Positions 5,214 through 59,049 of a stretch of 64,000 nt of DNA are shown here, in pieces. The stretch lies in NCBI GenBank assembly GCA_963771465.1, contig CAVYTU010000002.1, positions 1-64,000 on the forward strand. The letters run 5' to 3'. Position 1 is the stretch's first letter; every line of letters starts with the position of its first letter. The notes below the pieces were generated by a model. The model was not told the DNA's origin. It ran no database searches and worked only from the letters and a program-made list of their open reading frames with translations. The translations under genes and the position numbers were made by a program. The stretch comes from an uncultured delta proteobacterium (GTDB taxonomy: Bacteria > Desulfobacterota > Binatia > UBA9968).

Positions 5214-5366
5214 ATGAACAATAATATTTCTGCTGGGCAGTGAAAGCAGATGCGCGGCGACCTGAAATCGTGGTGGGGCAGACTCACCGATGATGAGCTG
5301 GACTTAATCGGCGGTCATAAAGACAAGCTGATCGGTTAGTGCAGGAGCGATACGGGTATGCTCGCG
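5214..5366 (+). pseudogene. CsbD/YjbJ family stress protein, disrupted
   Basis: MNNNISAGQ*KQMRGDLKSWWGRLTDDELDLIGGHKDKLIG//VQERYGYAR; TGA at the conserved Trp plus a frameshift. Confidence 0.75.
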
Positions 5367-5483
5367 GTGTTGGCCTCGGCTACTTGCTCGCCCGGCGCAC
5401 GAGGTAAAGCATGCACAACGGATCGCCACCGGCCAAAGAACCAGGCTTCATATCATAAGAGGGAGAGCCAAACATTGCACAAA

Positions 5484-5979
5484 ATGGAAAAGCGCGACGA
5501 GGCCCGACGTCTATTTGTAGACGAGGGCCTGACTTACCCTGAGATTGCGCGCGCAATACGGATACCGATAGGCACTCTTAAAAGCTGGGGGATTAAGGGT
5601 AAATGGAAGCAGGCCCGTCAAGCGTATCAAGGCTCCGGTGAAACTCTCGATGCATCGATTGATAAGGTAAAGCTGTTGATCATCGATAAACTCGTGAATG
5701 TCTTCAATGGTTCGGCGCCGTTCGAAAGCGAGGTGGTTTACGCTACCGTTAAAGCAGGCGTGTTTCTTTTGTTGTTACAGGCCGACTGCGGCAGGGGAAA
5801 TTCGCAGGCGGTGTTGGATCTGCTCGAAGCGCTCAACAAGACCGACGACCGTATCGGGCGCGTACCGAAAAGCACGCATCTGTCTAGGGGCGGAGATGGA
5901 CACCGTGGCGGAAATCGCACACGTCCTTGATGCCACGGCGTTTGAAAACCGTGATCCGTTACTCATCTTCAACGCCTGA
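5484..5979 (+). CDS. Phage-type HTH protein (DUF1804/terminase small subunit-like), frameshifted
   Basis: KRDEARRLFVDEGLTYPEIARAIRIPIGTLKSWGIKGKWKQAR. Confidence 0.55.
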
Positions 5980-5999
5980 TTTTAGGTGTGGCGAAATTG

Positions 6000-6197
6000 A
6001 TGGCGAGTTATCTTAAGCCGCTAGTCTGTCCCCGCTGTGGATGGCACCAGCGTGAGGCCATCTCTTCGCTTTCCGGTGATTAGAGTGCGCTTTTGAACTT
6101 TGTGTATATTCGGTCCTTCCGTTGTAAGGAATGCAGATATCTATTCTGGAGGATAAAAAGACCGCCAGAAAATCCCTCCGCGCCGATTAACTTATAG
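6000..6197 (+). pseudogene. Small zinc-ribbon protein with internal stop
   Basis: CPRCG...*...RSFRCKECRYLF; in-frame TAG at 6081. Confidence 0.4.
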
Positions 6198-6813
6198 ATA
6201 TCGTCGATATGGATTATGGGGAGATTTTGCTATTGATTGCGGTTATTGCGGCGATATTCGTTTACTTCCCGGTAACGAGAGGATGATCCGCATCTGTCGA
6301 GACGGGTGTTGATCGGCGTTTTTAGCTTCACACGGAACTGGCATCACATGGTTTATGAGGAAGCCGGCTATGCTGTTTGTACCCGATGCGCGAAAATGCC
6401 GATGGCGAGAAAGTCCGCGCCTATTTCAATCTACTGGTATGCTTTCCTGTAGATAAGGTCATGAACAAACTTTTCGCCGAGCCGTGGTTCAGGTGGAAGG
6501 AAGCAAAAACCAAACGCCAAATGTGCTAATCTTGGTTTGCTACGATGGTTGGAGGGCGAAACACGAAACGACCATCGCGATTGCGGATTTAAGTAAGCTA
6601 CCAATCCTGTCATGACCCCAACCAACATCGGTCCGCGACGACTCTTCGACGAGATGGCATGAGGGGAGCGATACAATGAGGAACTTTTCAGAATTACAAA
6701 GGTTCACAATCCACCGCTTGAATGGGCAACACCCGAGCAGCGGTATCGAGCGGCACTCCGAGCGTTACGAAAATGGTCAGCCGCGAGCTCTGCGCCGTCA
6801 ACACTAAGGTGAC

Positions 6814-7133
6814 TTAGCTCTTGCTTGCCTGCATAGCTATAATCCGGTCCTTGACCTTATCGTAGGTGGCTTGCGGAACGATTTTCCTTGAAACGAGTTG
6901 GTCTTTTTTCTGGTAGGGACGACTGTCTCGATTTTTTGCGCATAAGCATCGCCGATTCCCGGAAGCGCTTTTAGGTCGTCAATCGACGCGGTGTTAATAT
7001 CTAGTAGTTTGGTTTTGGAAGGTGCTTTTTGGGTCTCAGCTTTTGTGATCTCCGCTGCCGGACTCCAGTCTGGGGAGTTACCGACAAGAGCACAAACAAA
7101 CACTGCTGCCAGTAAAGATTTGACTAGCCTCAT
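6814..7133 (-). CDS. ComEA-like helix-hairpin-helix protein (frameshifted)
   Basis: Signal peptide; LLDINTASIDDLKALPGIGDAYAQKI; shifted frame ends DKVKDRIIAMQASKS*. Confidence 0.8.
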
Positions 7134-7241
7134 TCTTCGCCTCCTATTGTTCTGAGAGAGAACCAGAGTATCGATTTGACCGGGCTGACCCATTATTAGT
7201 TAGGCCGCGAAGGGACCGCCATGTTTGACGGCCCTTCGCGG

Positions 7242-7424
7242 CTATCGGGCCTGGCCAGGCTCCGACTGTGGATCCTTTTGTCGAGTCGCGGTCACGCCGT
7301 GAACGATCGCTATGCCGATCAAACAGAGAATGGATACGCCGATCCATTGCATCGGGACGTTGAGCATGCTCCGATCGCCAGGCCGGTGATCAGTATGTGT
7401 ATCCGACGAGATCCCAAATGACAT
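7242..7424 (-). CDS. Small membrane protein (probably frameshifted)
   Basis: AAGGAGG RBS; VPMQWIGVSILCLIGIAIVHGVTATRQKDP. Confidence 0.5.
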   Translation of the reverse strand: MSFGISSDTHTDHRPGDRSMLNVPMQWIGVSILCLIGIAIVHGVTATRQKDPQSEPGQAR

Positions 7425-7467
7425 TGCGATCCTCCTTACGGCTACCTAGCGATATTCAGCATCCACG

Positions 7468-7614
7468 CTACATTTTCTTCTTCACCGAATCTGCCGCGTC
7501 TTGAGTCTTTTCTCCGGCCCGCTCAACGTCTTCTCCAATACCATGAACTGTGTTGCAAGCCACGTTCGTGCCTAACAGAACCAACATAAGCGTTCCCAAA
7601 ATTATCGTGCGCAT
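7468..7614 (-). CDS. Entericidin A/B family lipoprotein, 48 aa
   Basis: Manual translation MRTIILGTLMLVLLGTNVACNTVHGIGEDVERAGEKTQDAADSVKKKM; lipobox and CNTxxGxGxD motif; AAGGAG RBS. Confidence 0.85.
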   Translation of the reverse strand: MRTIILGTLMLVLLGTNVACNTVHGIGEDVERAGEKTQDAADSVKKKM

Positions 7615-7658
7615 ATCGATCTCCTTCTCTGTTCAAATTTCTAACAAGAACGACCTTG

Positions 7659-7674
7659 TGCACTATCTGTGCCA
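7659..7674 (-). promoter_or_regulatory. sigma54 promoter of the entericidin gene cluster
   Basis: TGGCACAGATAGTGCA, GG-N10-GC. Confidence 0.55.
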
Positions 7675-7971
7675 GATGATCACATATTGAAAAAGATTCA
7701 GGTTTATATGAACTCTCGAAAAGTTTCAGAAGAAAAAACCGGACAAATCCTTAAAAGCGTCGAGACTCTCGACAAGACACGGTTCGGTCGAACGCGATCA
7801 GTATAAAAGTCGCGCATGATCCAGTTTTATTTCTCTGCCTCATCCGCACCGATTTCGTACCTCTGAGATCGACATAAACGTTTTCCCCCACGACCCTAAA
7901 GGTGCCGACAGCGTTCGTCGAAACGCGATTGGGTTGACGCCGGGCGCCGATAGGAATATAGGCCCACTTAG

Positions 7972-8205
7972 ATGCAGACTGCTAAAAACAAATTATCTGG
8001 CATTCCATTCACCGGCCAGGATGCTCGCGTGTTCCAAGACCTTTTCGATGCACTGGAAGATGTTTACGGTAACGAGGCTCAAAGCTATATGCGCCAATAT
8101 CTCAAACTCTGGCCGGAGTATCTCAAACTCCAAGAAAGCGGAGTGAAGGTAAGAATTTCACCGCCTCACTTTGGTCGGCGACCGCTACTCATCATTGATA
8201 GGTGA
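7972..8205 (+). CDS. Hypothetical protein
   Basis: 77 aa ORF with ATG, co-directional with downstream ORFs. Confidence 0.5.
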   Translation: MQTAKNKLSGIPFTGQDARVFQDLFDALEDVYGNEAQSYMRQYLKLWPEYLKLQESGVKVRISPPHFGRRPLLIIDR

Positions 8206-8209
8206 ACGT

Positions 8210-8446
8210 ATGCTCGACCCGGAACAAACCAACGACCGGCGATTATTCATTCAACAGCTGAGCGAACTCAATGCAGAGCGAATAGAGAACGAGATGGCAG
8301 ATCAACACCGAGCTTGGAAACTGCTACTCGAAGAGAAAAACCGAGCGACCATCGAAAGAATCATGACGTGTAAGATCCGTGGAGTTTTTGAGACGGAATT
8401 GAATTCTAACGCGCCGCAGGCCTTGCAACGCCATCGTACCAATTGA
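8210..8446 (+). CDS. Hypothetical helical protein
   Basis: ATG at 8210 just after the previous stop. Confidence 0.4.
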   Translation: MLDPEQTNDRRLFIQQLSELNAERIENEMADQHRAWKLLLEEKNRATIERIMTCKIRGVFETELNSNAPQALQRHRTN

Positions 8447-8541
8447 ACTAGATTCTCCGTCAGTTAAGTTTCGTTACTATCGAACCCGACGATTCAATTC
8501 CCTGTGCTCGCTCCGTACTAGCCTATCCCAAGAATGATTGC

Positions 8542-9156
8542 ATGATCTGGAATGAAGACAGTCTCGTGGAATCTGCGTGCAGTGCTCTCGTTAACCTAGC
8601 GGGGGAGTTGGATTTCGAGAATGCGACACGCGGCATCGACTGTCTAAATGAACTGGACCTCCAGCACCGTATCTCTGAAACTCTAAATTTGCACAACGTT
8701 GTGGCGGTGAAGGAAGCGCGCTATCCAGCAGCGCATATTATAGAACGCCTCAATCACGGCAAGCGTTGCGACCTCCTGTTGTTCCACGATTCGAAAGATT
8801 TAGAGTTAGTCTCCCAATTTGACGCCAACAAGATTGGCTACTGGCTAGAGATCAAACGAGTTGCGCAGTTTCTTGAGTCCGGACCGAATTGGCATTACGA
8901 ACGCACGTTGTTAGAGACGTTACCCCAGGATGTTTTCAAGCTCGCCAATGACCCTGAGATTTTCTATGCAGGCCTGCTAGTAATTCTTTTCACTAGTAAT
9001 CCGTCCATGGGAAAGCGCGATCTTCAGACCTGGAAGTGTCACGCGATGAGTCGTGGATGTCCCGTTGGAATTCCTCGAATCTGCGATTTCAGCATCAGCA
9101 ATCGAATCGGCAATGAACACGTGTTTGTTGCCCTTTTTCCGGTTCGTCGACTCTAG
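8542..9156 (+). CDS. Hypothetical protein, PD-(D/E)XK nuclease-like
   Basis: NELDLQ...EARYP...KRCDLLL...WLEIK. Confidence 0.6.
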   Translation: MIWNEDSLVESACSALVNLAGELDFENATRGIDCLNELDLQHRISETLNLHNVVAVKEARYPAAHIIERLNHGKRCDLLLFHDSKDLELVSQFDANKIGYWLEIKRVAQFLESGPNWHYERTLLETLPQDVFKLANDPEIFYAGLLVILFTSNPSMGKRDLQTWKCHAMSRGCPVGIPRICDFSISNRIGNEHVFVALFPVRRL

Positions 9157-9210
9157 CTCGGTGATGAACGGGGCCAGATCGCTGACCAGTGTGGTACGGT
9201 CCCTGGAATT

Positions 9211-10170
9211 GTGGCGAGACAAAAGAAATTGAAACCGCGTCAACGAGGGTTGAGCGGGATTGACGGAGTGGATTTCGTCCGCTGCCGGATATGTGGCGAC
9301 CACCATCGCGTCATCAGCGGACGGCATCTTTCCAAGCATGGTATCGACCGACTGGCATACATGGAAGATTACCATCTCAGCCCCGACCAACTCATCGCCA
9401 AGGATTTTCGGACGCTACGAAGCTCACGCCCCGGATTTCAGCCATACGGTAAGAGCGACTGGATTACGGCGATCCGAGCAATCTATAGAAAGGACGGCAA
9501 CGTCTCACCCAAATATCTCCAAGCGAAACACCGGCACATTTACAATCAAGCCCGCTGGATTTTTGGTGATTTCGACAAAGCGCTGCAAGCTGCGGGATTG
9601 GACCCATCAAAGATGCGGGTACGAGTTTCTTGGGACAAGGATAAAATCATCGCGGCCATTCGCCGCCTGCGCCAGCAAAAGCTGCCGCTCTACGCTCATT
9701 ATGCAAATACGAATCACACAAAACTCTTCGCAAGTGCCTTGCACCATTACGGGTCATGGCCAAAGGCGCTGGCGGCAGCTTTACCCAAGTCACAGGTTCC
9801 AGCCAAGCTCCTAACTCCAATTCAGATATTGAGGGCGTTGCGGGATGCAAGCGGTGACGTTCCGCATTCCCTGCGTTTGCAAGCCGAGTATTACTTCGGA
9901 AGTTTGTCGAAGGCGCGAGCAGCGGTGAGGAAAGACCCACGAATGCGGAGCGGTTGGAGCAGCGAGAAAATATTAACCGTACTACGCCGAATGCATAGGG
10001 ATCGCAAAGGTCTTGGTTACGGCGATGCACGGCGACAGGCTACGAGGCTAGTAACGGCCGCGGAGGCATATTTCGGAAGTTGGGGTAGGGCACTAGATGC
10101 CGCAGGCATTGATCCCAATTTGTATTTTGTTCATCACAAGTGGCGCAAGTCGAGAGTTAATCACGCTTGA
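9211..10170 (+). CDS. Basic protein with N-terminal C2H2 (MucR-like) zinc finger and repeated FGSWxxALxAAG units
   Basis: CRICG...HLSKH; IFGDFDKALQAAG, HYGSWPKALAAA, YFGSLSKARAA, YFGSWGRALDAAG (homing-endonuclease-associated repeat-like). Confidence 0.7.
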   Translation: MARQKKLKPRQRGLSGIDGVDFVRCRICGDHHRVISGRHLSKHGIDRLAYMEDYHLSPDQLIAKDFRTLRSSRPGFQPYGKSDWITAIRAIYRKDGNVSPKYLQAKHRHIYNQARWIFGDFDKALQAAGLDPSKMRVRVSWDKDKIIAAIRRLRQQKLPLYAHYANTNHTKLFASALHHYGSWPKALAAALPKSQVPAKLLTPIQILRALRDASGDVPHSLRLQAEYYFGSLSKARAAVRKDPRMRSGWSSEKILTVLRRMHRDRKGLGYGDARRQATRLVTAAEAYFGSWGRALDAAGIDPNLYFVHHKWRKSRVNHA

Positions 10171-21473: not shown

Positions 21474-22688
21474 TCATTTTTTTTTGAAACGGGCTCTCAT
21501 GGTCTCATTCAAGATTTCTCCGCTGACCCGCACGATCAGCTCCGCGAGCTTTCCCTGCGGGAATGCATGGCGGGATTCGCCGAGGGCAGAAATTTGATCG
21601 CCCAGAATTCGATTGGCCATCGGCCCCATTGCTTCGGTGGCTGCATGGGTCATACGATCAAAAAATTGCAGAGAGACGGCGGGTCCTTTCGTGGCAATCC
21701 GGGACAGCGATACGCGCTCGGACTCGCGAAGAGGAATGGCGGGTGTTTCAGGCCGACCGTTCGTGTTCGCCTCGGTACCGTTAGTTTCAGAGCGCTTTGG
21801 GTTGATTCTTGAAATTGGAGCAGTTTTCATCCTGAGCAATCCAGCCTCCGAGGCTCCCATCTTTGCAGTTTCGTTACCTTGCTCCAACAATAGACCCCCG
21901 GCTGCCTTCATGAGCATATAGGGGGAGACCTTCTTTCTGCCTGTCACGCCGGCCATGGCCAGTGAGGCATCACAGAGGATATTAATCAGTCGCGGCGTTC
22001 CTCCCGAATAATGCAAGACCGCCTCGACCGCTTCTTTAGTAAAAATCTCTGGACCGTCATAACCTACGATCTGGAGACGGTGACGAATATAGTGGTCTAC
22101 CTCACTGGTCGTCTGCAAAGAGCACAGACGATGATGAATCGCGATTCTTTGCTTGATGCGGCGCAGAGAGGGTTTGCTCAATTTAGTCAGCAATTCCGGT
22201 TGCCCCACGAGCACGATCTGGAGCAGTTTATCCTCATCGGTCTCCAAGTTTGACAGATCGCATAGACCTTCCAACGCTTCATCGCTAAGCTTTTGGGCTT
22301 CATCGATAAGCAGGGCCACGGTGCGACCTATCCTTAACTGCTGAATAAGATAGTTATTCAAATCCTGAATCATCTCTAATCGGTTTTTTTCTTTGTTGCT
22401 TAGTCCCACATTCTGGACCATCAACTCCGTTAGTCCATAGGAAGTGAGATGACTATTTGAAACAAAAACAAAGTGAACGCGCGCCTCGATATGACGCATG
22501 AGCTTACGTAAAAGGATCGTTTTACCCGTTCCCACTTCTCCCGTGACAAGCATAAAACCCTTTTTGCTTTCAATTCCGTGAACAAGCGCCGCCAAACCCT
22601 CAAGGTACAGAGGGTGGCCATAAAAAAACCTCGGGTCCGGCGTTGCCCCGAAGGGCGTTTCTCGAAACCCAAATTGACTTTCAAACAT
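21474..22688 (-). CDS. ExeA/GspA-family AAA+ ATPase with extra C-terminal helical domain
   Basis: FGFRETPFGATPDPRFFY, GEVGTGKT, LLIDEAQ, LVGQPEL, SGGTPRLINILCD; start could be upstream (22724 or 22772). Confidence 0.9.
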   Translation of the reverse strand: MFESQFGFRETPFGATPDPRFFYGHPLYLEGLAALVHGIESKKGFMLVTGEVGTGKTILLRKLMRHIEARVHFVFVSNSHLTSYGLTELMVQNVGLSNKEKNRLEMIQDLNNYLIQQLRIGRTVALLIDEAQKLSDEALEGLCDLSNLETDEDKLLQIVLVGQPELLTKLSKPSLRRIKQRIAIHHRLCSLQTTSEVDHYIRHRLQIVGYDGPEIFTKEAVEAVLHYSGGTPRLINILCDASLAMAGVTGRKKVSPYMLMKAAGGLLLEQGNETAKMGASEAGLLRMKTAPISRINPKRSETNGTEANTNGRPETPAIPLRESERVSLSRIATKGPAVSLQFFDRMTHAATEAMGPMANRILGDQISALGESRHAFPQGKLAELIVRVSGEILNETMRARFKKK

Positions 22689-23000
22689 GGCTTTGCGTTC
22701 TTGAGAGCTGGGAAACTCCATCATTTGCTTACCCTCCGCTTGAAAGTGGCCCTCGCCATCCGATTTTGACAAATTTCACCCTTGCCGTGTCCAACCTATT
22801 GGGACACGCCGGAAGTTCCTGCGCAATAAAATGATTGTCGTGACGAAGATGGTGCGAACAGGAGCAAGTTGTAATTTTTCAATTTAGTTTTGTCAAGACA
22901 AAAACTCGTCACAACAATAAAAAAAATTGCGATAAGCACTGCGCATCTGTTTATAGTGCTGTGGATGATGTCGATAAGAACGCGTGTTGTCTGCACAACT

Positions 23001-26177: not shown

Positions 26178-28017
26178 ATGGAGCCGACGCGCGATACTCG
26201 TCAGTTATCTTGGTTTTTGGCATGGGCGGTGGTGTTCTGTGACATTGGCACCTCGGTTTACTACGTGCCGGGTATCCTCTACGGCAACGTTGGCAACAAC
26301 ACGCCGTTCTTCGTCCTGCTCACGACCCTCGGCTTCATACCGCTCGCTTTAAAATACATCGAGATCAGCTGGCGCAACCCCGAAGGCGGCGGCGTCGTCA
26401 CCATCACCACCAAAGCCTTCGGTCCCATGTGGGGTTGCCTTGGCGGCATGCTGATTATCACCAGCTACTTTTTGACCGCTGCGATTTCTGCCGTCTCCGG
26501 CTTACATTATATCGCCAGCTTGCTCCACTTTATCGATGACCATATCGTCGGGTTGGCCTGCGTGGGCCTATTAGCGTTAGCGGCGTTAAACATCATCGGC
26601 ATTCGCGAGAGCGCTACGGTCGCGCTGCTCATGGCACTGGTGGCCTTTTCAGTCGATATCGTCGTCGTCGTGATCGCGCTTGGACAACTCTCGCCGGCGC
26701 AATGGTGGCAAGTCCTCGGCACCTTCGCTCCGGATCGTTCGATGTCGTTTCACGCTCTCGCCGTCGGTTTCGCCGCCGCTTGGCTGGCGTTCTCTGGGCT
26801 GGAAAGCATCAGCCAGTTGAGTCCGGCAATGAGGCTCCCCTTGCGCCGCACGACGCGCAAGGCGATGTGGTGCGTGATTGTAACAACGCTTTTGACCTCG
26901 CCGTTACTAACTCTGTTTTCGATTCACCTGCTGCCGGCGCAGTTCAAGGAAACCCAGAGCGAGCGATTCATCTCCGAAGTTGCCATGCTCTCCGGCGGAT
27001 TCGGCCTAAAACTTGCCGTGGTCATGAGCGCTTCGATGTTGTTGCTCTTCGCCGCCAATACCGCAATCATCGGCTGCTATCATATCTTCTTGGCGCTGAC
27101 CAAGTTGGAATTTCTGCCGCGGGTTATCGCTTTGCGCAGCGCTCGCTTCAATAGTCCGCATGTCGCCATCGCTATCGCCACCGGGGTTCCGATTGCGGTT
27201 ATCTTAGCCACCCAAGGCCATCTGGCCCTGCTCGGGGAAATGTACGCTTTCGGCCTGCTCGGCGCCTTCGTCTTCTCGTCGCTAAGCCTGGATGTCATTC
27301 GTTGGCGTCTCGGGCGACGCGACTTTGCCTTTTGGATCGGCGTGCTCACCACAGTCATGATCTTGGTCGCCTGGTGTATCAATTTAGTCGAAAAAGAATT
27401 GGCAACGGTGTTCGGCGGCGCGCTGACCGTGTTCGGCATGATCGTCGCCGTCGGTGTGCGCCGCTCCTGGTTTCTCGATCTACTGCACAAAATTCCTTGG
27501 GTTGAACGCCTGCAAGCGCGCGCCTATCGAAGCTTCGGAAGCCTTGGTCGATGATGAGCTCAAGGGCCTCGTCACTCTTGCCGATGCGGTCGAGATTAAA
27601 GTTCTCTACTCTTCCTCCACGCTGATGGCGCTGCGCGGCGAAAATCCCCGCCTACTGCAAGAAGGCATTCGCCGCTCCAAAGGCGCTGGCGAACCCGCGC
27701 TTTATTGCGTGTATGTCGAGGAATGGCCCGGACTATTTCACGGCCACACGCCCCATCGGCCCAACGAAGAAGGGGTGCGAACCTTGCGCGCCGCAATACA
27801 GGAAGTGCGCGGAAAAAATATCGAAGCAATCCCGATCTGGATGGTATCGCACAACGCCGCCGAGGCGATTGCCAACGCTGCCAAGGCCCTCGACGTCGAT
27901 ACCGTTATGATCGGTGCCAGCCGGCGCTCGGCGTTTTACCACATGCTTCGCGGCCACGTGATCAAAGGGTTGATTAAGACATTGCCCCGCGATTGTCACT
28001 TGATGATTTTCAACTAG
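26178..28017 (+). CDS. APC-family permease with C-terminal universal stress domain (one frameshift near 27530)
   Basis: DIGTSVYYVPG, PEGGGVV, AFSGLESISQL; AAEAIANAAKALDVDTVMIG...LRGHVI. Confidence 0.85.
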
Positions 28018-28095: not shown

Positions 28096-29938
28096 ATGCA
28101 ACCGACAAAAGATACTCGACAACTCAACTGGTTTTTGGCGTGGGCCGTAGTTTTTTGTGATATCGGCACTTCGGTTTACTACGTCCCGGGTATTCTCTAC
28201 GGCCATGTTAAAGACGCCACGCCGTTCTTCGTCCTGCTCACCACGGGCGGTTTTATTCTCCTATCGCTGAAATACATCGAAATTTCCTGGCGCAATCCTG
28301 AAGGCGGCGGCGTGGTGACGATTACGACCAAGGCTTTCGGCCCCATGTGGGGCTGTCTTGGCGGCATGCTGATCACCGTCGATTATTTTCTTACCACAGC
28401 GATCTCGGCGGTTGCGGGTTTTCAATACATCGGCAGCGTTGTTTCCGGCATCGATGCCCACATTGTTTTGTTCTCCTGTGTCGGTGTCGGGGTATTCGCC
28501 GCGCTCAACGTCATCGGCATTCGCGAAAGCGCCGCGCGTCGCGTTAGTCATGGCCTGCGCGTCGTTTCTGGTCAATATGTTGGTCATCGTGATCGCCTTG
28601 ATTCACAATGGACGGATGCCAATGGAGCACCGTGATCAGCGGTCTCGGCACCGGCAAAGGCATCTCTAAGTACGAACTGCTGGTTGGATTCTCCTCCGCG
28701 TGGCTGGCGTTTTCCGGCTTGGAAAGCATCAGCCAATTGAGTCCGACGATGAGCTGCCGCTGCGGCGCACCACGCGCTGGGCGATGGCCGCCGTGATGGT
28801 CACCATGGTGATTACATCGCCCGTGCTAACCGCGCTTTCCATCGGACTCTTACCTGAGCATTTCAAAGCGGCGGAAAGCGAACGTTTATTTCCGAGCTTG
28901 GCCGCATCGTCGGCGGTCTCGGCGTCAAGTTCGCCGTGGTGCTAACGGCTTCGAGCTTACTATTGTTTGCCAGCAACACCGCCATCATCGGCTCCTACCA
29001 TGTATTTCTCGCTCTAGTTAAGCGGCGGATTCTTACCCCGGGATCATCGCCATGCGCAACCCCGCGTTCAACACGCCGCACATCGCCGTCGTATGGCAAC
29101 GATCGTACCGATGTTCGTCATCCTGCTCAGCCGCGGACAAATGAAAATACTCGGGCGACATGTACGCCTTCGGCCTCCTCGGCGCATTTGTGTTTTCTTC
29201 CTTGAGTCTCGATTCCATCCGCTGGCGTCTTGGCCGGCGCGATATCGGTTTTTGGATCGGCGTGTTCACAACTTGATGGTCATGGTCGCTTGGGCGATCA
29301 ATATCGTCGAAAAGCAGCTGGCGACTTATTTCGGTGGCGCCGTTACGTTCATTGGCATGCTTACGGCGGTCGGAGTGCGCCGCGCATGGTTTGTCGATAT
29401 CCTCGTGCGTATTCCCTACATCCAGCGGCTCCAAGCGCGCGCCTATCGCGCCTCGGAAGATTTGGTCGAAGACGAGCTGAAAGGGTTGATGACCCTGGCC
29501 GAAGCGGTGGAAGTCAAACCGTTCTACTCGTCGTCGACCCTGCTCGCCTTGCGCGATCGAAAGCCCGCGCCTGATACAAGAAGGCGGTCACCCGTGTCAA
29601 AGGCAAAGGAGAAACGGCGCTGTACTGTATCTACGTCGAAGAATGGCCGGGGCTGTTCGCCGGCGACAACACCGCACGCGCCCAATGAACAAGGAGTCAA
29701 ACTCTCAAGGCGGTACTCCAGGCGGTACGCGAAAAAGGCTTCGAAATTATTCCGATCTGGACGGTATCGCACAATGCCGCGGAAGCGATCGCCAACGCCG
29801 CAAAAGCGCTAGATGTCGACTCGGTGATCATCGGCGCAGTCGCGCCGCTCGGCTTTCTATCACATGCTGCGTGGCCACGTGATCAAAGGCCTGATGAAAA
29901 AGCTGCCGCGCGACTGCCACTTGATGATTTGTAATTGA
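28096..29938 (+). CDS. Second APC permease-USP paralog (multiple frameshifts)
   Basis: Same motifs across shifting frames, ends LPRDCHLMICN*. Confidence 0.8.
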
Positions 29939-32410: not shown

Positions 32411-33113
32411 TCATATATCCAGCCCCGCGCCATGCTTCCTCAGCCACTCTTTGCGCTCTTCGTAATCCGGCATCATTTTGTCCACTTCGTTCCAGAAAGC
32501 ATCGGTATGGTCGAGCTGATGCAAATGGCAAAGCTCATGGACAACGATGTAGTCGATAATCGTCGGTGGGGCCATCATGCATTTCCAGTGGAACGCCAAC
32601 TTTCCACTTGGAGAACAAGACGCCCATCGATAGCCGAGTTCCCGGACGTCCATCCCGCGTCAGTTTAACGCCGACTTTCGGAGCGTAATATTTCACTCGC
32701 TCTCGTGATCCGATCTTGTCCGCGTACAACGTAATAGTCGCGAAATGCCGCCTGGGCCGCCGCAACGTCGCCGCGGTCAACGAAATCACGTCGCAAGCAA
32801 AAGCGACCATCTTTCAACTGCACCGGCGCTTCTTGGTCCGCGACCAGTAGAAGGCGATAGGAGCGACCAAGGTACAAAAATCCTTCACCGTTCCGGTATT
32901 CTCGTAGAACGCGAGTCGCGTTGAGATCGCGCCACTCAGCCAGATTCTTGTAGATCCAATAGCGCTTCGCTTCGACAATGTCTTCGATGCGCTCGTCGGG
33001 GAATGTGGCCGGCGCGCGGACAACGATTTTGCCATTCCGCTCGACGACGATATCCGCCGTGGAGCGGCGGCTGCGCACGACTTCGTAGGAGATGTCTTTA
33101 TCGCGTGAGGCTT

Positions 33114-33117
<4 letters not shown>
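32411..33117 (-). CDS. M48/YgjP-like metallopeptidase of type I R-M loci (frameshifted)
   Basis: RWASCS, IDYIVVHELCH HExxH; start overlaps the hsdR stop. Confidence 0.9.
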
Positions 33118-36377
<3,260 letters not shown>

Positions 36378-36401: not shown

Positions 36402-37669
36402 TTATTTTCGTTTTCCTGTTTTGCCTTTTGGTTTCTTGGAACTCTGCTTCCAGGGTGTCTTCGTCACCTCATCCAAATCCAAAGTCAGAGCAGTATCACC
36501 TCCATCGCCGATGGCGGCCACGGTGAAGAGTTCGTCAGGGTAAAACTCTTGCTCTGCGTACCAACTTAGCCCACTTTTGCGCTTCTTAACTTCCGCGAAA
36601 AGTTCATACGCGTCTTCCCCTTCATTTTCAAAGTCGGGGTAAGTTATGAAGGTAACAAATCGGCCACGCGGCGGCGGGCTCCCTTGGGTGCACTCATAAA
36701 ACACGTTGACGGTATAGTAATCCTCGTGCTCCCTGACCGTCGCCGTAAGGCGTCGATGACCGTTATCATCTAATATGCCAAAAAGTTCCTTGTTCGGATC
36801 GTCAAGCTCGTAGTCGTGAATCACCGGGCGATCGCCCGGCGGAATTCGAAACCGCACGGGAAACTCGGGATAAAATTCGCAGAGTCGTCGGCTCGGAATG
36901 CACCACGAAATATGATCTTTCGACAATTCTAGAACCACCAACCCGATAAACGCATTCAAGTCCGATGACCACACCGGCGCTCCACTAAACCCTCCCATCA
37001 CGGACAGCGCGCCGCCGCGATCCATCTGCACTAAGCCCTTGGCATTTGCGGCGTGGAGAAGTCCAGCAGCATTGCGTCCTTGCTGATCGCTTCCCGGAAA
37101 GCCCATTACGGAATAAGCCTTGCCGCCATGCCTCAAAGGACTGGCGAACGACACCGGTTGAATGCTAACGAAAGACAAAGGGTTTAGAATCTCCAGCAAC
37201 GCCAAATCATTTTCCGAGCCATCACGATCTTCGACTTTCATCACCTTGGTTCTTATCTTTGGCTGGCCAACGACACCAATAAGTGTTACGTCCAGCTCTT
37301 TGCCAAGAGGCGTTACTTCCTCGTCGGGATTTTCCTTTTCCAACGCATTGGCAACGACGTGACGACAAGTCAGGATGTGTCGGTGATTGAGCAAACAGGC
37401 TGCTCCAAGAATTTGGCCGTCGAACCGATGCACGGCCACAACGCGAGCCGTCTCTGATCCGTTACGCGCAGGCTTAGCGGCGGTACTTGGTTTGCTTCGA
37501 ATGATTTTGTGGGATCGTATTTGAACGATCCCGGCACATAGACTGTTTCAGGGTAGACAACGCGCGAAGTTGAAGAGGTGTCAGCCGCCTCAAGCATTTT
37601 AGTCGGGTCAGGACGGTTCTCCGGCTCCAGTGCCGGCTTTGGCTTCTTAGTATGAGTCGGTTCTTTCAT
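36402..37669 (-). CDS. Trypsin-like serine protease with C-terminal pYEATS-like domain (probable frameshift near 37450)
   Basis: Triad LTCRHVV, DLALLE, GFSGAPVW; DDPNK..FG...NG.RRLTATV...FTVAAIGDGGDTALTLDL; ATG 37669 overlaps the upstream TAA. Confidence 0.75.
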
Positions 37670-37998
37670 TACTTCGTCTTTTTGTCGTTAGCCCATTTGA
37701 GAGTGATCTTGAAGTTGGCCTTTGCCGAGCCTTCCATGATCATGGGGATACCTCCCTCACCACCCAACTCGAGCCCGAATTCCACTTCTATTTCTGAAGG
37801 ATTGTTGGCAGCAATCAAGGCGTTGCGAATCGTGTCGGCCACGGCGGACAGCGGCTCGAGCTGTTCTCCGAGTTCTTTAGCAACCTTGCGAACAATGTCC
37901 CTCGACGCGTTGCGCGGTATACCTTGATCGTCAGAAGACTCGACTAGAATGAAGTGTTCCTTTTTCTCGGACTTTACCTTGTATGCGACTGTAGCCAT
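37669..37998 (-). CDS. Trypsin-co-occurring domain 1 (Trypco1/CU044_2847 family) protein
   Basis: PSEIEVEFGLELGGEGGIPMIMEGSAKANFKITLKW; GGAG RBS. Confidence 0.85.
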   Translation of the reverse strand: MATVAYKVKSEKKEHFILVESSDDQGIPRNASRDIVRKVAKELGEQLEPLSAVADTIRNALIAANNPSEIEVEFGLELGGEGGIPMIMEGSAKANFKITLKWANDKKTK

Positions 37999-38033
37999 AA
38001 AGCTCCTTTTGTTAATGGGTGTTTGTTTATAGA

Positions 38034-38197
38034 CTTCCGCTGCGCGCCGCCTGCACCATCTGGTCATGCGTCCGCTACCGCTTGTCCAGGAACCGATCGC
38101 AGAATACGTCAGTGCCGTCGTAGATTATCTCCGTCACCTGATACGACTGCAGCCGATAACCGCCGTGCAGCCGCGACGTGGCGTTGTCGCCGCTCAT
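38034..38197 (-). pseudogene. 5' remnant of a four-helix-bundle (IVS-type) protein gene
   Basis: Across frames: HGGYR.LQSYQVTEIIYDGT..FCDRFLDKR..THDQMVQAARSG, then stops abruptly. Confidence 0.7.
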
Positions 38198-39501
38198 CAC
38201 CCGTCCACCTTCACTCGCCCGGTCAGGAGGTCGTGCATGAGGCCGTGTTTTTGTTGGCGGAGTTTAGCGACTTGACGGTTCAGTGAATCAGAATATTTGT
38301 TGAGCACACCGATTCGAGCCTCAATTTCTTGCTGCTCCTCGTGGTTGGGCAGCGCTAATGGAAACCCTTTTAGCTGAGTGGAGTTAATTGAGGCGAGGTT
38401 GGTGGACTGCTTCGAACTCATCACAAAGTATTTTTTTCCGAATTCCGACTGAGACCAATACGCCAAGTAGTTCGATTGGAGCCGACTTGAGTGAGAACGA
38501 ACTCGGAAGACGTGGTTTTGATGGATGCATGGAGTATATCTCTTCGTTCCAAACCGTTCCACGTCCAAGTTTGTCGTAATCGCCCCCTTCGTTCATTAGA
38601 ACATCTCCACGTTTCAGACACAGTTTTTCGAGTTGGTCAAAAGACACTCGAATTGTCTTGATCTCATGCAGGTCAAGATAACCATCTTGCACGTTAGCGA
38701 CTCGAAGATATGGAATTTCTATGCCGAATTTTATCTCGGCTTCTGAACCGAGGGTTACCCCAGAAACAATCTCCGCGAGTGTACCCAACTGCTGTATCTG
38801 CCACTCCTTCGGAATCCAGCCGAGGGGGGATTCTTTGTAGAGTTGCGGCGCTTCGGCGCGGGTGGGGCGGAGTTTGCCGTCAGGCGTGACGCCGCGGGTA
38901 AACAGGTCGTGCATCAGCCCCGCCTTGATCTGCTGATACTTCGCAATCAGCGCCTCCGTCTGCTCAATCGAGCGTCTAGTATCAAGGATATCGGCGATAC
39001 CTTGTTGAACTTCGAGTTTGGAGTGGAAACCTGAGAACGCTCGAAAACGTTCTGATAAAGATGCATCCATTGTTGAGCCCGCCAAATTCAGATTCAGAAA
39101 TTCATCGAACACACTCGACCGAAGTAAGAAGATACAGAAACCGGTGAGTTACACCTTCCGTCCGCGCAGCGAAGTAAGAACACGCCACTAATAAGAACCA
39201 GCGTTCTCAGGGCAATCTGTACACAAAGGCACTTTGCCGATTAGTTCCGTCCACGGAGTGAACAGAGATCGCCGTTGCGGACATGAATGTATGCGCCTGT
39301 CTTGAAATCTTGCTTCGGTGACGTGGTAAAGGAATCCCAGTCAATGCTTCCATTCCGAAAGTCTTGCCAGTGATAAGATGGGGACCGTCGATCGAGAAAT
39401 CGTCGGCGTGCAACTGTGCCAAGGCCAGTTCTGCAATTAACCGCCACTGACGAACTTTGATGGGCGTCTGAGGCCATTACTCTTGGTGACTTGACACAAA
39501 C

Positions 39502-39509
<8 letters not shown>
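38197..39509 (-). CDS. hsdS: Type I R-M specificity subunit S (heavily frameshifted)
   Basis: QQIKAGLMHDLFTRG...LGWIPKEW; YLRVANVQDG; KHGLMHDLLTGRV. Confidence 0.9.
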
Positions 39510-41977
<2,468 letters not shown>

Positions 41978-42164
41978 CAAGAAAACCGAATCGAATTTCT
42001 AATAGTAAATTGTTGCAGATTCTACGCGAAACCGTGCGCGCATGCCAAGTGTTCAACAGTTCAATATTCCATCGTTCCAAACGTTCAGCCACTTCCAAAA
42101 ACAAACAACGCCGCTAACAGTTTCCCGCTAGCGGCGTTCTCAACAATTTTATTACAATTGAAAA

Positions 42165-42868
42165 TCATACCACCGCCTCCTCGCTCGCCTTGGCCGATTG
42201 CTCGATTAGCTGATGCGCCTCTTCCGTGCCGAGGAATCGGTCGATCGCCGCGTGGCCGGCGTAGAGCAGCGGTGTGATACCGACGGCGACAATGAGTTTG
42301 AATGAATAGTTGGACGCCGCCACGGCCAAAAACTCGGCAGTCTTCACCTTGCCCGGCAGCCAGAAAGCAATCCCGATGATGACGATGCTGTCGATCAGTT
42401 GCGAGACCACGGTGGAACCGGTGGCGCGCATCCAGAGATATCGCCCGCCAGTCTTGTGGCGCACTAACCAAAAGATAAAAACATCGATCATCTGACTTAA
42501 AGCAAAGGCGATGACGCTGCCGACGATAATCCACATTGACTGGCCGAACACGGCTTGGAATTGACGTCGCTCACCGGCGAAAACGACACCGCGGGAACCT
42601 GCATCGCCAGGAAGAGCACGATGAACGCATAGACGATCAGACCGATGGTCATGAACGTCAGCCGGCGCACTCCTTCTCGGCCGAAATACTCGTTGATCAA
42701 ATCGGTGGCGATAAAAACCACCGGCCAGGGAATCACGCCGATGCTCAAGGTGAATGGCCCGAAGGTAAATAATTTGCCGCCGGTGAGCTCGCCCAAAATC
42801 GCGTTGGTCACGAAGAAACCGGCCAACGCCATGTAGACGATATCCCTGCGGCTTTGTAGTCCAATCAT
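42165..42868 (-). CDS. yhhQ: Queuosine precursor transporter (YhhQ/VUT family), one frameshift
   Basis: GVIPWPVVFIATDLINEYFG; SQMIDVFIF; RATGSTVVSQLIDS. Confidence 0.85.
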
Positions 42869-42912
42869 AGATGCCTCAATCCGCGCGCAATGAAACGTTA
42901 GGCGCCAACCGC

Positions 42913-43939
42913 TCACTTCATGCCGAGATTCTTAAGAAACCCAGACTTGGTCAGGGCATCGACGAAACTATTGTCGTAGAAATCTTTTGGGTCGGCGTTT
43001 TTGACCTTGGGGAATTCTTTTTCGTCGATGTATTCGAATTGCCCTCTGATCGCCTCGGGACGCACGGCTAGACTCATCGCCCAATAGGGCGCGAAAGCTT
43101 CGTAAGTGCCGTCGATCGTCGGCCCGTCATCGAGCTTCGCGTACTTGGCGATCGCTTTTTTCGCCGCGGCGGGATCTTGTTTCGCCAGCGCGACGCCTTC
43201 AGCGATCGCTTTTAGGAACGCGTAAACGGTATTGGGATTATTTTTGAGATACTTTTCCGTCGCGCCGTAGGCGACTTGGAGGGCCGGGATGTTAAGCTTG
43301 CCGACATCCACCAACAAATTTAATCCAGCATCTTTGGCCTTGATCGTATTCGGTGCCGACAGCGTCCCGGCCGCGGTTTTGCCGCCGAGTATCGAGCTTA
43401 GAATCGCCGGCACCGATTGCACGTAAAGAATTTGCACATCTTTATCCGGCATCAGGCCGTTTTTCTTGAGCGCCTCGCGGGTCGCGGTGTCCAGCGCCGC
43501 GCGCGGCGTGCTGGCAGCAACCGCCTTGCCTTTCAAGTCCCGAATCGTTTTGATCTCCTTGGCCGCCCAAATCTGAAACACCAGCTGCTGGATCGTGCCG
43601 CCAAAATATTTCACCTGCCCGCCGTGCAAGCGCGCATTGATCAAATCGGGTCCATCGGTGTAGAAGTCCGCCTCTTCTGAGATCACCGCCTGGGCCGAAA
43701 CCTGCGGCGTGAGAAGCTGCAAAGTCGCATTCAATCCGTATTTTTTGAACAACCCCGCTTCATGCGCCAGCCAGATCGGCGTAAACGCGCCGCTCGGTTG
43801 CGCATAGGTCACGACCACGTCGGATTTTTCGGGCTTGCCGCCAGCGTCCGCCGCAAAAGAAGAGTGAATCAGCACACACAACCGAGATCAGCAGCAGCGC
43901 AAGAGCCGCTACAAGCCAATTTGATTTACCATGCTGCAT
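42913..43939 (-). CDS. NMT1/SsuA-type ABC substrate-binding protein (frameshift in the signal region)
   Basis: PIWLAHEAGLFKKYGL, DLKGKAVA, FYDNSFV. Confidence 0.85.
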
Positions 43940-57318: not shown

Positions 57319-58823
57319 TCAGAACTTCGCCCACCAAGGAATCGCTTCCTTGGTCACACCTTCGATCCTAACGTTGTAGGTCTGCAACAGCGTGCCCTCG
57401 GCCAGTTTCAATTTGGCCATGGAGTTATTGTAGTCAGTCAACGACCGTAGTTCCGCGCCCTCGGCGTCGATTAATCTCGATTGGAAGTCGATCACGTCTT
57501 TTTGCGTGATCAGGCCCACCTGGAAGCGCTTTTCTTGCATGCGCAAGTTTTCTTCGGCGAGGGTTTTTGCCTGCTGGCTGGTTTGAATGCGCTTGTAGCC
57601 GCTGTCGACATCGCCCAGGGATTTCTCAACTTCCAAGATCACCTGATTGACCAGCTCACGCTGACGCGCTTTTTCTTGCTCCAACTCGATGCGGGCCTGG
57701 GAGTGTTTACTATGGGCTTGGCCGTTACCCAACGGCACCTGCAGCACCACGCCGACGCTGTAATTGTAAAAGTCGCCACCCAACCGTTCGAGGGATGTAC
57801 CGTAGCCGCCGGGAAATGGATTCATCGTGCCGGGTTTCAACTCGCCGGCGATGCCGGTCAAACCCGCGCCAACGCGGAAATCCATGCGCGGCAGGAAATT
57901 GTGATCAGGATTGACATTGATAGTTAAGCGCAGCTTCGCACTGGCGAAGTCGAGATTGTTGCGGGCGACGATCAATTGCTCGTCGCGGCGCGCTTTCTCC
58001 GCCCGCGCTTCGATCACCGCGACCGCGGCGAACTGACCGGCATTGAATTCGCCTCGGCGTTTTTCTGCAACGCTTCGGCCAACTCGACACCTTTTTCTTG
58101 AACTCGCACGTTATCGGCGGCGAACACGACCGCGCAGTAGCGCTTCGACGATGCGTTGAATCAGTTCGGCCAATTTCGCGCGATAGCCGAGCACACTGAC
58201 TTCTTCGCGGTTTTGATGCGGACAAAAATCGTCGTCAGGCCCCAGCCAAAGTCGCGCAGCAACGGTTGGCTCAGGTAAATCCCAATCGCGGACGATACTG
58301 CGGCTTTAATACTTGGTTGGGCAAGCTGCCGACGAAGCGATTATTAAGAAAAGACAAATTAAGCTGGGTGCCGGTGGCAAAAAGCTTTTTCAGCGTCAAA
58401 TCCCAATCGCGGTTCTGACTGCTCTGCACCAGTTGGAAAAATGGGCTCGCTTCGGTACGGATCGATCGAGTAGCTTTTACGCAGGTATAAATTGACCGTC
58501 GGATCGAAGATCGAGCGTTCCGCGAGCGTCTGCTCGGCGGCGCGCAGCGGTTCGAGCCGTTCCACTTCGATGCCGGGATTGTTTTTGAGCCCAAGCAGCA
58601 CCGCGTCATTCAGGCTAAGCTGGGCCGACTCCGGCGCCGCCTTGCGGAGAAATTCCAGCGTGTAGCCGCTCGGCGTCGGCACAATCGTCGTCCACTGATT
58701 TTCTAACAGCTTGAGCGCCGGCGGCGTGGCGCGAAAATCTGCTTGCGGCGGAATCTCCTGTGCCGATGCCGGCGCTTGCGAAAGAAACAGGGCGAACCCG
58801 GTGATCGCGGCCAATCGCTTCAT
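57319..58823 (-). CDS. TolC-family outer membrane protein (multiple frameshifts)
   Basis: LSLNDAVLLGLKNNP; VLQVPLGN; LAEENLRMQEKRFQVG. Confidence 0.8.
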
Positions 58824-59049
58824 AAATGCTCCTTGTGCTGATTTCAGAGAACTGCGTCAACATTCTGCCGGTTGCTGCTATAATTTTGGCTACAGAGATC
58901 GATCGCCGAAGTCAATGTGACAGTTACGCGCGCCAATTCGTGCTTGACTATTGACAAGCCGGGAGGCGTTCAATATGAATTTAGGCCAGCTTACCAACGC
59001 CGCGCGAGGTGTTGGCGCGAACGAGAACAGGGAGCATTAGACGGGAAAG

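Follow-up and report, generated by a model that had tools for sequence, protein, structure and literature searches.

A Trypco1 and trypsin-pYEATS cassette between hsdS and hsdR, likely a compact version of a newly described kind of anti-phage suicide module in bacteria

In a 64,000-nucleotide (nt) stretch of the genome of an uncultured delta proteobacterium (assembly GCA_963771465.1, contig CAVYTU010000002.1, positions 1 to 64,000; this whole stretch is called the window and its numbering is used throughout), a two-gene cassette was found between hsdS and hsdR of a type I restriction-modification (R-M) operon. The first gene encodes a Trypco1 protein and the second a trypsin-like serine protease that ends in a domain of the pYEATS (prokaryotic YEATS) type. 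The cassette is likely a compact representative of a type of anti-phage suicide module lately described in bacteria. By analogy with that type it is rather probable that it acts as a two-gene protease-effector module of abortive infection, in which the pYEATS-type domain takes the place of the large STAND (signal transduction ATPase with numerous domains) or Avs sensors. Every gene of the locus lies on the minus strand. The cassette is made up of the following parts.

37669 to 37998, minus strand: Trypco1 (Pepco-type) gene, 109 codons (37998-37672) and stop codon TAA (37671-37669); assigned with Pfam PF19493, NCBIfam NF041216 and an alignment of 11 partners
37370 to 37669, minus strand: 5' portion of the deposited protease gene, encoding the N-terminal extension as far as ...LRVTDQ and from there out of frame to the stop codon at 37372-37370
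37453 to 37455, minus strand: frameshift site of the protease gene, one base (a G of cag-gag) absent in comparison with all homologues
36885 to 37439, minus strand: core of the trypsin-like (S1, Trypsin_2) protease, read in the GTG 37439 frame; assigned with Pfam PF13365
36402 to 36872, minus strand: pYEATS-type beta-sandwich, then a Lys-rich tail and stop codon TAA (36404-36402); assigned by profile, hhalign and AlphaFold2 (AF2) model
36872 to 36435, minus strand: the part assigned as the divergent pYEATS domain proper, residues 190-335 of the 345-residue open reading frame (ORF)

The 109-residue product of the upstream gene matched Pfam PF19493 over positions 9-97 of the 98 in the profile (E 6.1e-20; 72.1 bits, the cut-off being 24.6) and NCBIfam NF041216 with an E-value of 1.7e-19. 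This confirms the Trypco1 call of the original prediction, which had been made from the letters of the window before any database search. An AAGGAG ribosome-binding site is situated 7 nt upstream of the ATG at 37998. The coupling of the two genes that had been predicted was also seen, as the Trypco1 stop codon and the protease ATG at 37669 share one A in a TAATG overlap (37671-37667); that the protease is one intact gene did not hold, because its reading frame shifts by one base near 37454.

The names Trypco1 and Trypco2 were given solely because the two co-occur with trypsin domains (Kaur et al., 2020, PMC7159879, available text). They correspond to Pepco in the work of Evans et al. (2025, bioRxiv 10.1101/2025.11.14.688446, cited here and below from its available text), in which the pair SsPepco-SsAvs4 of Streptomyces subrutilus was described. 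According to these authors, Pepco forms 9-10-mer beta-barrels that resist heat and detergent, and the partner serine protease trims a 2-kDa C-terminal tail after Ile97, a residue conserved among Pepco proteins that have serine protease partners. Toxicity needed Pepco and was confined to a Pepco ending exactly at Ile97, which killed Escherichia coli by itself (Evans et al., 2025). The protein in the window has an isoleucine at residue 98 (codon 37707-37705), inside the motif NFK[I/V]TLKW, which by its position, the basis of the match, may be the counterpart of Ile97 of SsPepco. In an alignment of the 11 Trypco1 partners of the protease family this position was occupied by Ile in 5 and by Val in 6 sequences. 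The partners end with EAKANFK[I/V]TLKW and then 0-12 mostly charged residues, and the count of residues after the Ile or Val (TLxW and the variable end) was given as 5-17; in the window 11 residues (T99-K109) follow I98. A Streptomyces Trypco1 that adjoins a 1432-residue trypsin-domain protein (locus L021) reads ...FEITLTW..., with the Ile at about residue 98 of 115.

The protease core is encoded in the frame that runs from GTG 37439 to 36402 and comprises 345 residues. It matched Trypsin_2 (PF13365) with an E-value of 3.9e-11 and 44.3 bits, the cut-off being 27.6. The predicted catalytic triad was found intact, with the His codon at 37361-37359, the Asp codon at 37208-37206 and the Ser codon at 36986-36984, and the corresponding residues H27 (in LTCRHVV), D78 (in NDLALL) and S152 (in GFSGAPVW) were invariant in 53 aligned family members. 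The motif LRxTDQETARVV precedes the core in almost all of these 53 sequences, and an N-terminal extension of 60-75 residues is present in the closest subgroup only. A word-indexed search of 5.8 billion proteins yielded 156 relatives at E<=1e-3, nearly all of which span the full 345 residues; the precomputed Pfam domains among them were trypsin only. As had been predicted, no NTPase domain was detected in the cassette proteins with Pfam or PADLOC. A sequence search of the PDB with the Trypco1 and protease profiles gave no meaningful match, and no solved structure related in sequence to the protease was found there; the ESM Atlas gave no usable match either.

The C-terminal domain required a more indirect assignment. 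The Pfam pYEATS model (PF20305, 73 positions, cut-off 26.9 bits) gave no match on the whole protein or in a six-frame search of the genome. HMMER was run with a profile (A4) of 28 C-terminal domains over 1.84 billion representatives, and 272 matches were obtained at E<=1e-3. Of the 117 remote matches listed, 45 with E-values from 2.0e-11 to 5.4e-5 were scanned with Pfam, being taken down the list and not at random. Pfam pYEATS was located at the place matched by A4 in all 45, in 44 of them above the Pfam cut-off, and the pYEATS domain in the scanned proteins was fused to TIR_2, SIR2_2, CHAT, caspase, SLOG or YLATT. Alignment of A4 with a TIR-pYEATS protein (P0180) by hhalign gave a probability of 98.1% and an E-value of 6.8e-14 over 108 columns. 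These two results supersede a first hhalign comparison, made with 8 pYEATS domains only, which was weak (P 0.012, probability 3.5%). The region shared with pYEATS extends from a DDPNxxLFG element to FTVAAIGDGGDTALTLDL. The central-strand motif, LHP[ST]F in the 8 reference pYEATS domains, is TYPDF both in the window and in the consensus of the family. When the isolated domain was compared with Pfam at E<=10, DCC1-like was the sole entry returned, and this was taken as a chance match.

The AF2 model of residues 190-345, based on a 52-row alignment, was an all-beta sandwich with a pLDDT (predicted local distance difference test) of 90 and a pTM (predicted template modelling score) of 0.82. Among the 48,161 chains compared with VIA-align, YEATS structures came first (YEATS2 with Z 7.0, ENL with 6.9, GAS41 with 6.7 and 6.6, and Yaf9 and Sas5 lower). 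Many Ig-like folds lay within 1 Z unit of the top YEATS matches in this comparison, and the fold alone is not decisive; a Foldseek search of the PDB returned nothing below E 1e-3. Judged from the profile comparisons, the C-terminal domain is a divergent pYEATS at the superfamily level, lying outside the model of Pfam and carrying a different signature. At this level the original assignment to pYEATS was right, although the Pfam model misses the domain. We know of no pYEATS ligand. The same unit of trypsin and pYEATS-type domain constitutes the N-terminal 330 residues of the KAP-NTPase proteins P0130, P0131, P0136 and P0138.

The distribution of the cassette was studied in contigs representing one genome per species (37 loci, 9 of which have the pYEATS-type domain) and in metagenomes of the Joint Genome Institute (80 of 328 relatives kept, 24 with the domain). 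In the resulting 33 related loci, a search with the Trypco1 hidden Markov model (HMM) placed Trypco1 directly upstream of the protease on the same strand in 16. Five loci have less than 300 nt of upstream DNA, too little to judge, and 12 lack Trypco1; with the duplicates L053/L060, L065/L068 and L070/L071 each counted once, these amount to 9 distinct ones. In two of the loci, L008 of Granulicella (5706-7310) and L069 (19-507), a DUF900 alpha/beta-hydrolase precedes the protease in place of Trypco1. DUF900 hydrolases are described as another class of protease-licensed effectors (Evans et al., 2025). A TCAD7 domain is also present in L008, and a Lamassu LmuB gene lies 3 kb downstream. An S8 subtilase is found directly downstream of the protease or overlapping it in L003 (10438-12414) and L053 (2474-3946), both without Trypco1; upstream in L053/L060 is a 150-residue ORF that belongs to no known family.

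The loci occur in unrelated phyla and contexts. They span Acidobacteriota, Burkholderiales, Myxococcota, Verrucomicrobiota and Dongia, and Rhodocyclaceae, Planctomycetes and Gemmatimonadales come in through homologous proteins. PADLOC gave strong matches within 5 kb of other members, to LmuB (7e-166), BrxA (1e-68), DpdE (1.5e-180) and PDC-S14 (3e-96). A patatin and a serine recombinase are nearby in L051, and an IS110 transposase in L007. Embedding in an hsd operon was seen in only two of the 33 loci. In L002, from a metagenome-assembled genome (MAG) of Burkholderiales, the order hsdM-hsdS-Trypco1-protease-hsdR-ygjP is that of the window and all genes are intact. In L005 (Verrucomicrobiaceae) hsdM-hsdS is followed by a trypsin-pYEATS-KAP NTPase gene, Trypco1-protease, DUF4357/PDC-S14, an AbiEii-like gene and hsdR-ygjP, the hsd operon being intact; the 1136-residue trypsin-pYEATS-KAP P-loop NTPase protein (5969-9376) lies directly upstream of the Trypco1-protease cassette. 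In L004 (3202-3288) and the near-identical L057, 29 codons of the hsdR N-terminus stand right after the protease and L004 has no R-M genes, a stub that suggests descent from an hsd-embedded copy. In the family tree the window forms a group with L001 and L048 (support 91/87), both situated outside hsd loci. The tree is mostly unresolved, with 10 of 21 inner forks open, and does not fix the number of moves into hsd loci.

The following course of events is proposed. Trypco1 would be a latent effector, a beta-barrel assembled in advance which, by analogy with SsPepco, is harmless as long as it carries its short charged C-terminal tail. The second gene would supply a cytoplasmic trypsin-like serine protease with a C-terminal pYEATS-type sensor. 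A ligand derived from the phage or induced by infection, either a protein or a small molecule, would engage the pYEATS domain, and the ligand-bound domain would switch the protease on. The protease would then cut Trypco1 after Ile98 and remove T99-K109, a step for which the trimming of Pepco by its partner offers a direct precedent (Evans et al., 2025). The barrel would then permeabilise the membrane, and the infected cell would die before phage release. No NTPase would be involved. The cassette would be autonomous and mobile, and would have landed in the hsdS-hsdR slot by replacing the 3' part of a four-helix-bundle gene.

Several observations weigh against this proposal. The family is known from sequences alone. 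The Pfam pYEATS model misses the C-terminal domain even when this is searched by itself at E<=10, and of the three profiles named in the original prediction Trypco1 and Trypsin_2 were recovered and pYEATS was not. The TYPDF motif, where the reference domains have LHP[ST]F, may mean a different ligand or a lost pocket. In proteins of 1100-1300 residues the domain sits between trypsin and a KAP NTPase, where it could be a structural adaptor and no sensor. The AF2 model of the Trypco1 monomer was poor (pLDDT 56) and was set aside. The assignment of I98 is positional, and SsPepco may be of either type, Trypco1 or Trypco2. A defence neighbourhood, as originally predicted, was evident from the strong PADLOC matches at some loci and not at others: in 11 of the 19 loci scanned there was no match within 5 kb at E<=1e-8, a raw count that has no background rate beside it. 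Searches of 72,556 plasmids and 50,697 phage records turned up no full-length member; the plasmids gave protease-domain matches only, with 0 records at >=80% coverage, and the phages none. Finally, as deposited, the protease gene is frameshifted in a conserved motif, and the cassette may be dead in this genome.

A wider form of the proposal is put forward tentatively, as one that is doubtful at present. Trypsin-pYEATS would be a self-sufficient immune sensor that is free of NTPase, its TYPDF pocket directly reading a ligand specific to infection, for example a phage protein or a modified lysine or peptide, and so licensing the protease. The unit would be plugged onto interchangeable latent killers (the Pepco pore, the DUF900 hydrolase and possibly the S8 subtilase), with or without a KAP NTPase.

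The frameshift in the protease gene was located by comparison with homologues. Translation from ATG 37669 gives an ORF of only 99 residues (37669-37370), which matches residues 1-72 of the nearest homologue, P0002, and has no match in Pfam, NCBIfam or PADLOC. The stretch 37669-36402 measures 1268 nt, which is no multiple of 3. P0002 has 422 residues, is 86% identical and is continuous across the break, where it reads ...LRVTDQETARVVAVHR...; the three-frame translation of the window has ...LRVTDQ in one frame and continues with ETARVVAVHR... in another. Compared with the homologues P0002-P0017, one G of cag-gag is therefore missing near 37454, where the Q and E codons of the LRxTDQETARVV motif meet. 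The coding-phase HMM placed the switch at 37443. Programmed frameshifting was rejected, as the site has no slippery heptamer and 52 of 52 aligned homologues are continuous.

Frame changes are not confined to the protease. With the intact L002 and L005 genes as reference, the following were counted.

hsdM: six clean single-base insertions and one complex change of net +1, relative to L002
hsdR: nine single-base insertions, relative to both L002 and L005
ygjP: one single-base insertion and one complex change of net +1
hsdS: one or more frame changes
protease: one single-base deletion

One reading of these changes would be that in this genome the entire type I R-M operon, together with the cassette, has truly turned into pseudogenes, in an inactivated and decaying locus where no gene functions. 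Besides the shifts themselves in the protease, hsdM (about 7), hsdR (9), ygjP (2) and the split hsdS, the local character of the damage would fit decay. The 15 coding-phase switches between 32,400 and 42,000 are the maximum among 5,616 sliding windows that cover the genome (6.9 Mb) and have a mean of 6.0 and a standard deviation of 1.9, with the reservation that the three-state phase-switch HMM is confounded elsewhere by runs of short genes, which are the other high windows. Elsewhere the genome is sound and contains 53 ORFs of >=1000 residues, and the neighbouring 12 kb from recJ to coaBC gave full-length Pfam matches; statistics of ORF coverage and long ORFs had no local discrimination. The remnant of the four-helix-bundle gene next to the cassette is truncated and has a real nonsense codon. 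However, all of the about 18 shifts in hsdM, hsdR and ygjP are net +1 in non-homopolymer contexts, without a single deletion, which is contrary to what decay would produce, bacterial pseudogenes being deletion-biased. No in-frame nonsense codon was present in about 1,900 aligned codons, and the ratio of lineage-specific nonsynonymous to synonymous changes was 99:198 in the window, compared with 134:249 in the intact L002 and 202:268 in the intact L005, which shows no relaxed selection. Short-read contigs from other samples match the protease gene at 151 of 151 and 230 of 231 positions, so that near-identical copies exist elsewhere with no and one difference, respectively. Genuine decay is therefore held to be unlikely. 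Assembly error is favoured because the operon shifts are all +1, nonsense codons are absent and selection is not relaxed, and it is the quite probable source of the shifts in both the operon and the protease. No sequencing run contained over 8% of the words in the 9-kb stretch. In four public runs the contigs came for the most part from relatives of 88-96% identity, and these contigs lack the extra bases of the window at about 34090, 35051, 35635 and 40385, among others; because they are not of the same strain, they cannot separate error from mutation. The cluster of about 19 single-base indels is worth checking before the locus is annotated as pseudogenes.

Other split genes were noted. The amino-acid permease gene at 28096-29464 on the plus strand is spread over all three forward frames and is a 50% identical paralogue of the intact gene at 26178-27551. 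A Vut_1 gene (vitamin/queuosine-precursor uptake; 42168-42931, minus strand) adjoins hsdM and consists of two ORFs that correspond to profile positions 2-55 and 55-151, its frame change having the same direction (-1) as that of the protease. The OEP/TolC-like efflux gene at 57322-58856 (minus strand) is apparently split over 2-3 ORFs, with one OEP repeat matched. In another long-read MAG (L007, 9398-10991) Trypco1 and the protease are each split over two frames.

The surroundings of the cassette in the window are as follows.

39505 to 41980, minus strand: hsdM, split; HsdM_N and N6_Mtase matches on separate ORFs
38197 to 39512, minus strand: hsdS, over at least two frames, start approximate; Methylase_S match, and tblastn with the L002 HsdS in two frames
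38028 to 38197, minus strand: remnant of a four-helix-bundle (23S rRNA IVP family) gene; tblastn with the L050 protein
33117 to 36377, minus strand: hsdR, split; HSDR_N, SWI2_SNF2 and T1R_D3-like matches on separate ORFs
32414 to 33117, minus strand: ygjP-like metallopeptidase, last gene of the operon, with two frame changes; YgjP-like match

In the Pfam scan the hsdM, hsdS and hsdR domains all fell in this one cluster, which makes it a type I R-M operon, and the best-segment amino-acid identity to the L002 proteins was 88% for HsdM and 86% for HsdR. The cassette, present as a single copy in the genome, has hsdS and hsdM upstream and hsdR and the ygjP-like gene downstream, so that the domain matches on both flanks agree with the predicted position between hsdS and hsdR. 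The operon is closed by ygjP in the window, L002 and L005 alike. The protease stop codon is separated by 24 nt from the hsdR ATG, and the cassette is probably co-transcribed with hsdMSR.

The remnant upstream of the cassette starts with an ATG that overlaps the hsdS stop codon (TGATG). It is 67% identical to residues 62-107 of the four-helix-bundle protein of L050 (tblastn, E 1e-14), has a TAG (38077-38075) where the homologue has Ser, and ends after ...AARSG just before the cassette, about 150 residues short. The G+C content of the cassette is 0.518, compared with 0.599 for hsdR and 0.606 for hsdM, and the lower value stated in the original prediction was thereby reproduced. Because a truncated four-helix-bundle gene abuts the cassette and the G+C content of the latter is lower, the cassette looks like an insertion into an older hsdS-four-helix-bundle-hsdR arrangement. 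Direct repeats flanking the cassette were not found, nor was a promoter or terminator above chance. Elsewhere in the window, weak DUF1804 and HNH_repeat ORFs and an AAA_22/AAA_16 ATPase at 5340-10167 and 21477-22775 may be the remains of mobile elements, and the first third of the window has a low coverage by long ORFs.

A different role for Trypco1 would be that of an adaptor, inhibitor or chaperone and not of the killer, the decisive step then being the cleavage of a host or phage protein. The definition of Trypco1/2 by trypsin co-occurrence only (Kaur et al., 2020, available text) leaves room for this, Trypco1 is called an adapter domain in the available text of a paper on diversity-generating retroelements (10.1101/2023.09.22.558884), and in 12 (9 distinct) of the 28 judgeable loci the protease occurs without it. 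However, Pepco is required for toxicity, kills alone when ended at the cleavage Ile and forms barrels (10.1101/2025.11.14.688446, available text), which makes such a role quite improbable. Moreover, loci without Trypco1 carry other candidate effectors, either the DUF900 hydrolase or the downstream S8 subtilase.

The slot between hsdS and hsdR is that of prrC. Least probable of all is a PrrC-like guard that is held inactive by HsdMSR and fires when an anti-restriction protein of the Ocr, ArdA or Stp type disables the enzyme: the shared slot, the 24-nt distance to hsdR without a terminator-like site between the genes, the same order in L002 and (with extra genes) L005, and the hsdR codons kept in L004/L057 would suit such a guard, but it is judged very unlikely because most relatives are found outside hsd operons, including the closest ones (L001 and L048, among unrelated genes), L004/L057 keep an hsdR stub only, and pYEATS occurs with many effectors that are not linked to R-M. 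PrrC itself is found almost exclusively within type I R-M (10.1101/2024.01.29.577857, available text), and the trypsin-pYEATS family is otherwise. The sensing of R-M inhibition that had been predicted was accordingly not supported by the 33 related loci, with two embedded and two near-identical ones bearing the stub.

As a proposed protease-effector module of abortive infection, the cassette is of interest because the licensing of effectors by proteases is coming to be seen as a widespread principle in bacterial immunity, and the cases studied so far use large STAND or Avs sensors. Here sensor and protease are contained in 345-422 residues and the effector in 109, which would make trigger screens and structural work simple. 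A two-gene cassette with a lethal read-out would be a practical route to a pYEATS ligand, pYEATS being fused to TIR, SIR2, CHAT and caspase in many predicted systems. The locus also documents a putative defence cassette apparently inserted between hsdS and hsdR, where the scar left by the displaced gene can still be seen. If the reading of an NTPase-free sensor is true, the unit would rank as the smallest death switch licensed by a protease to date and would give experiments their first access to what prokaryotic YEATS domains bind.

As the original prediction had supposed, the arrangement of a pYEATS-protease with Trypco1 was not found described in the literature text searched, and it is not a model of PADLOC-DB 2.0.0; the supplementary tables on embedded genes of Payne et al. 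and on neighbourhoods of Evans et al. may list it. The available text of the Payne preprint (10.1101/2024.01.29.577857) has no mention of trypsin or Trypco. PADLOC-DB 2.0.0 holds no model for Trypco1 or the pYEATS part, and the protease gave weak protease-domain matches only (LmuA 4e-6, RT-protease 3e-5, Avs1b 9e-4, PDC-M35A 7e-3). Unlike the Avs/STAND protease systems, it has no STAND NTPase with a repeat sensor and ends after the pYEATS-type domain. The trypsin-pYEATS-KAP NTPase proteins share the trypsin and pYEATS-type unit and differ by a KAP P-loop NTPase of about 800 further residues. With PrrC/RloC and other genes embedded in type I R-M loci the cassette has in common that extra defence-type genes are nested between hsdS and hsdR (Payne et al., 2024); PrrC sits within hsdMSR and is set free by Stp (Payne et al., bioRxiv 10.1101/2024.01.29.577857, available text), whereas here there is no ABC ATPase and no anticodon nuclease, and the trypsin-pYEATS family is mostly found outside hsd loci. 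The pYEATS-effector fusions (PF20305; TIR-, SIR2-, CHAT- and YLATT-pYEATS) likewise have a C-terminal pYEATS-type beta-sandwich after an effector or enzymatic domain, but here that domain is a trypsin-like protease which would need a second gene, Trypco1, and the sandwich lies outside the Pfam model and has TYPDF for LHP[ST]F. The closest resemblance is to the Pepco-protease modules (Evans et al., 10.1101/2025.11.14.688446, available text). Those modules differ in that the family in the window is known from sequences alone, its sensor-protease has 345-422 residues with a pYEATS-type domain and no NTPase, and its predicted tail is of 11 residues as against 20. In both, a small gene of the Trypco family lies immediately upstream of a trypsin-like serine protease, a conserved Ile (or Val) is present near the C-terminus with a short tail after it (I98 here, which by position may correspond to I97 in SsPepco), and the proposed logic is that of a sensor acting through a protease on a latent effector.

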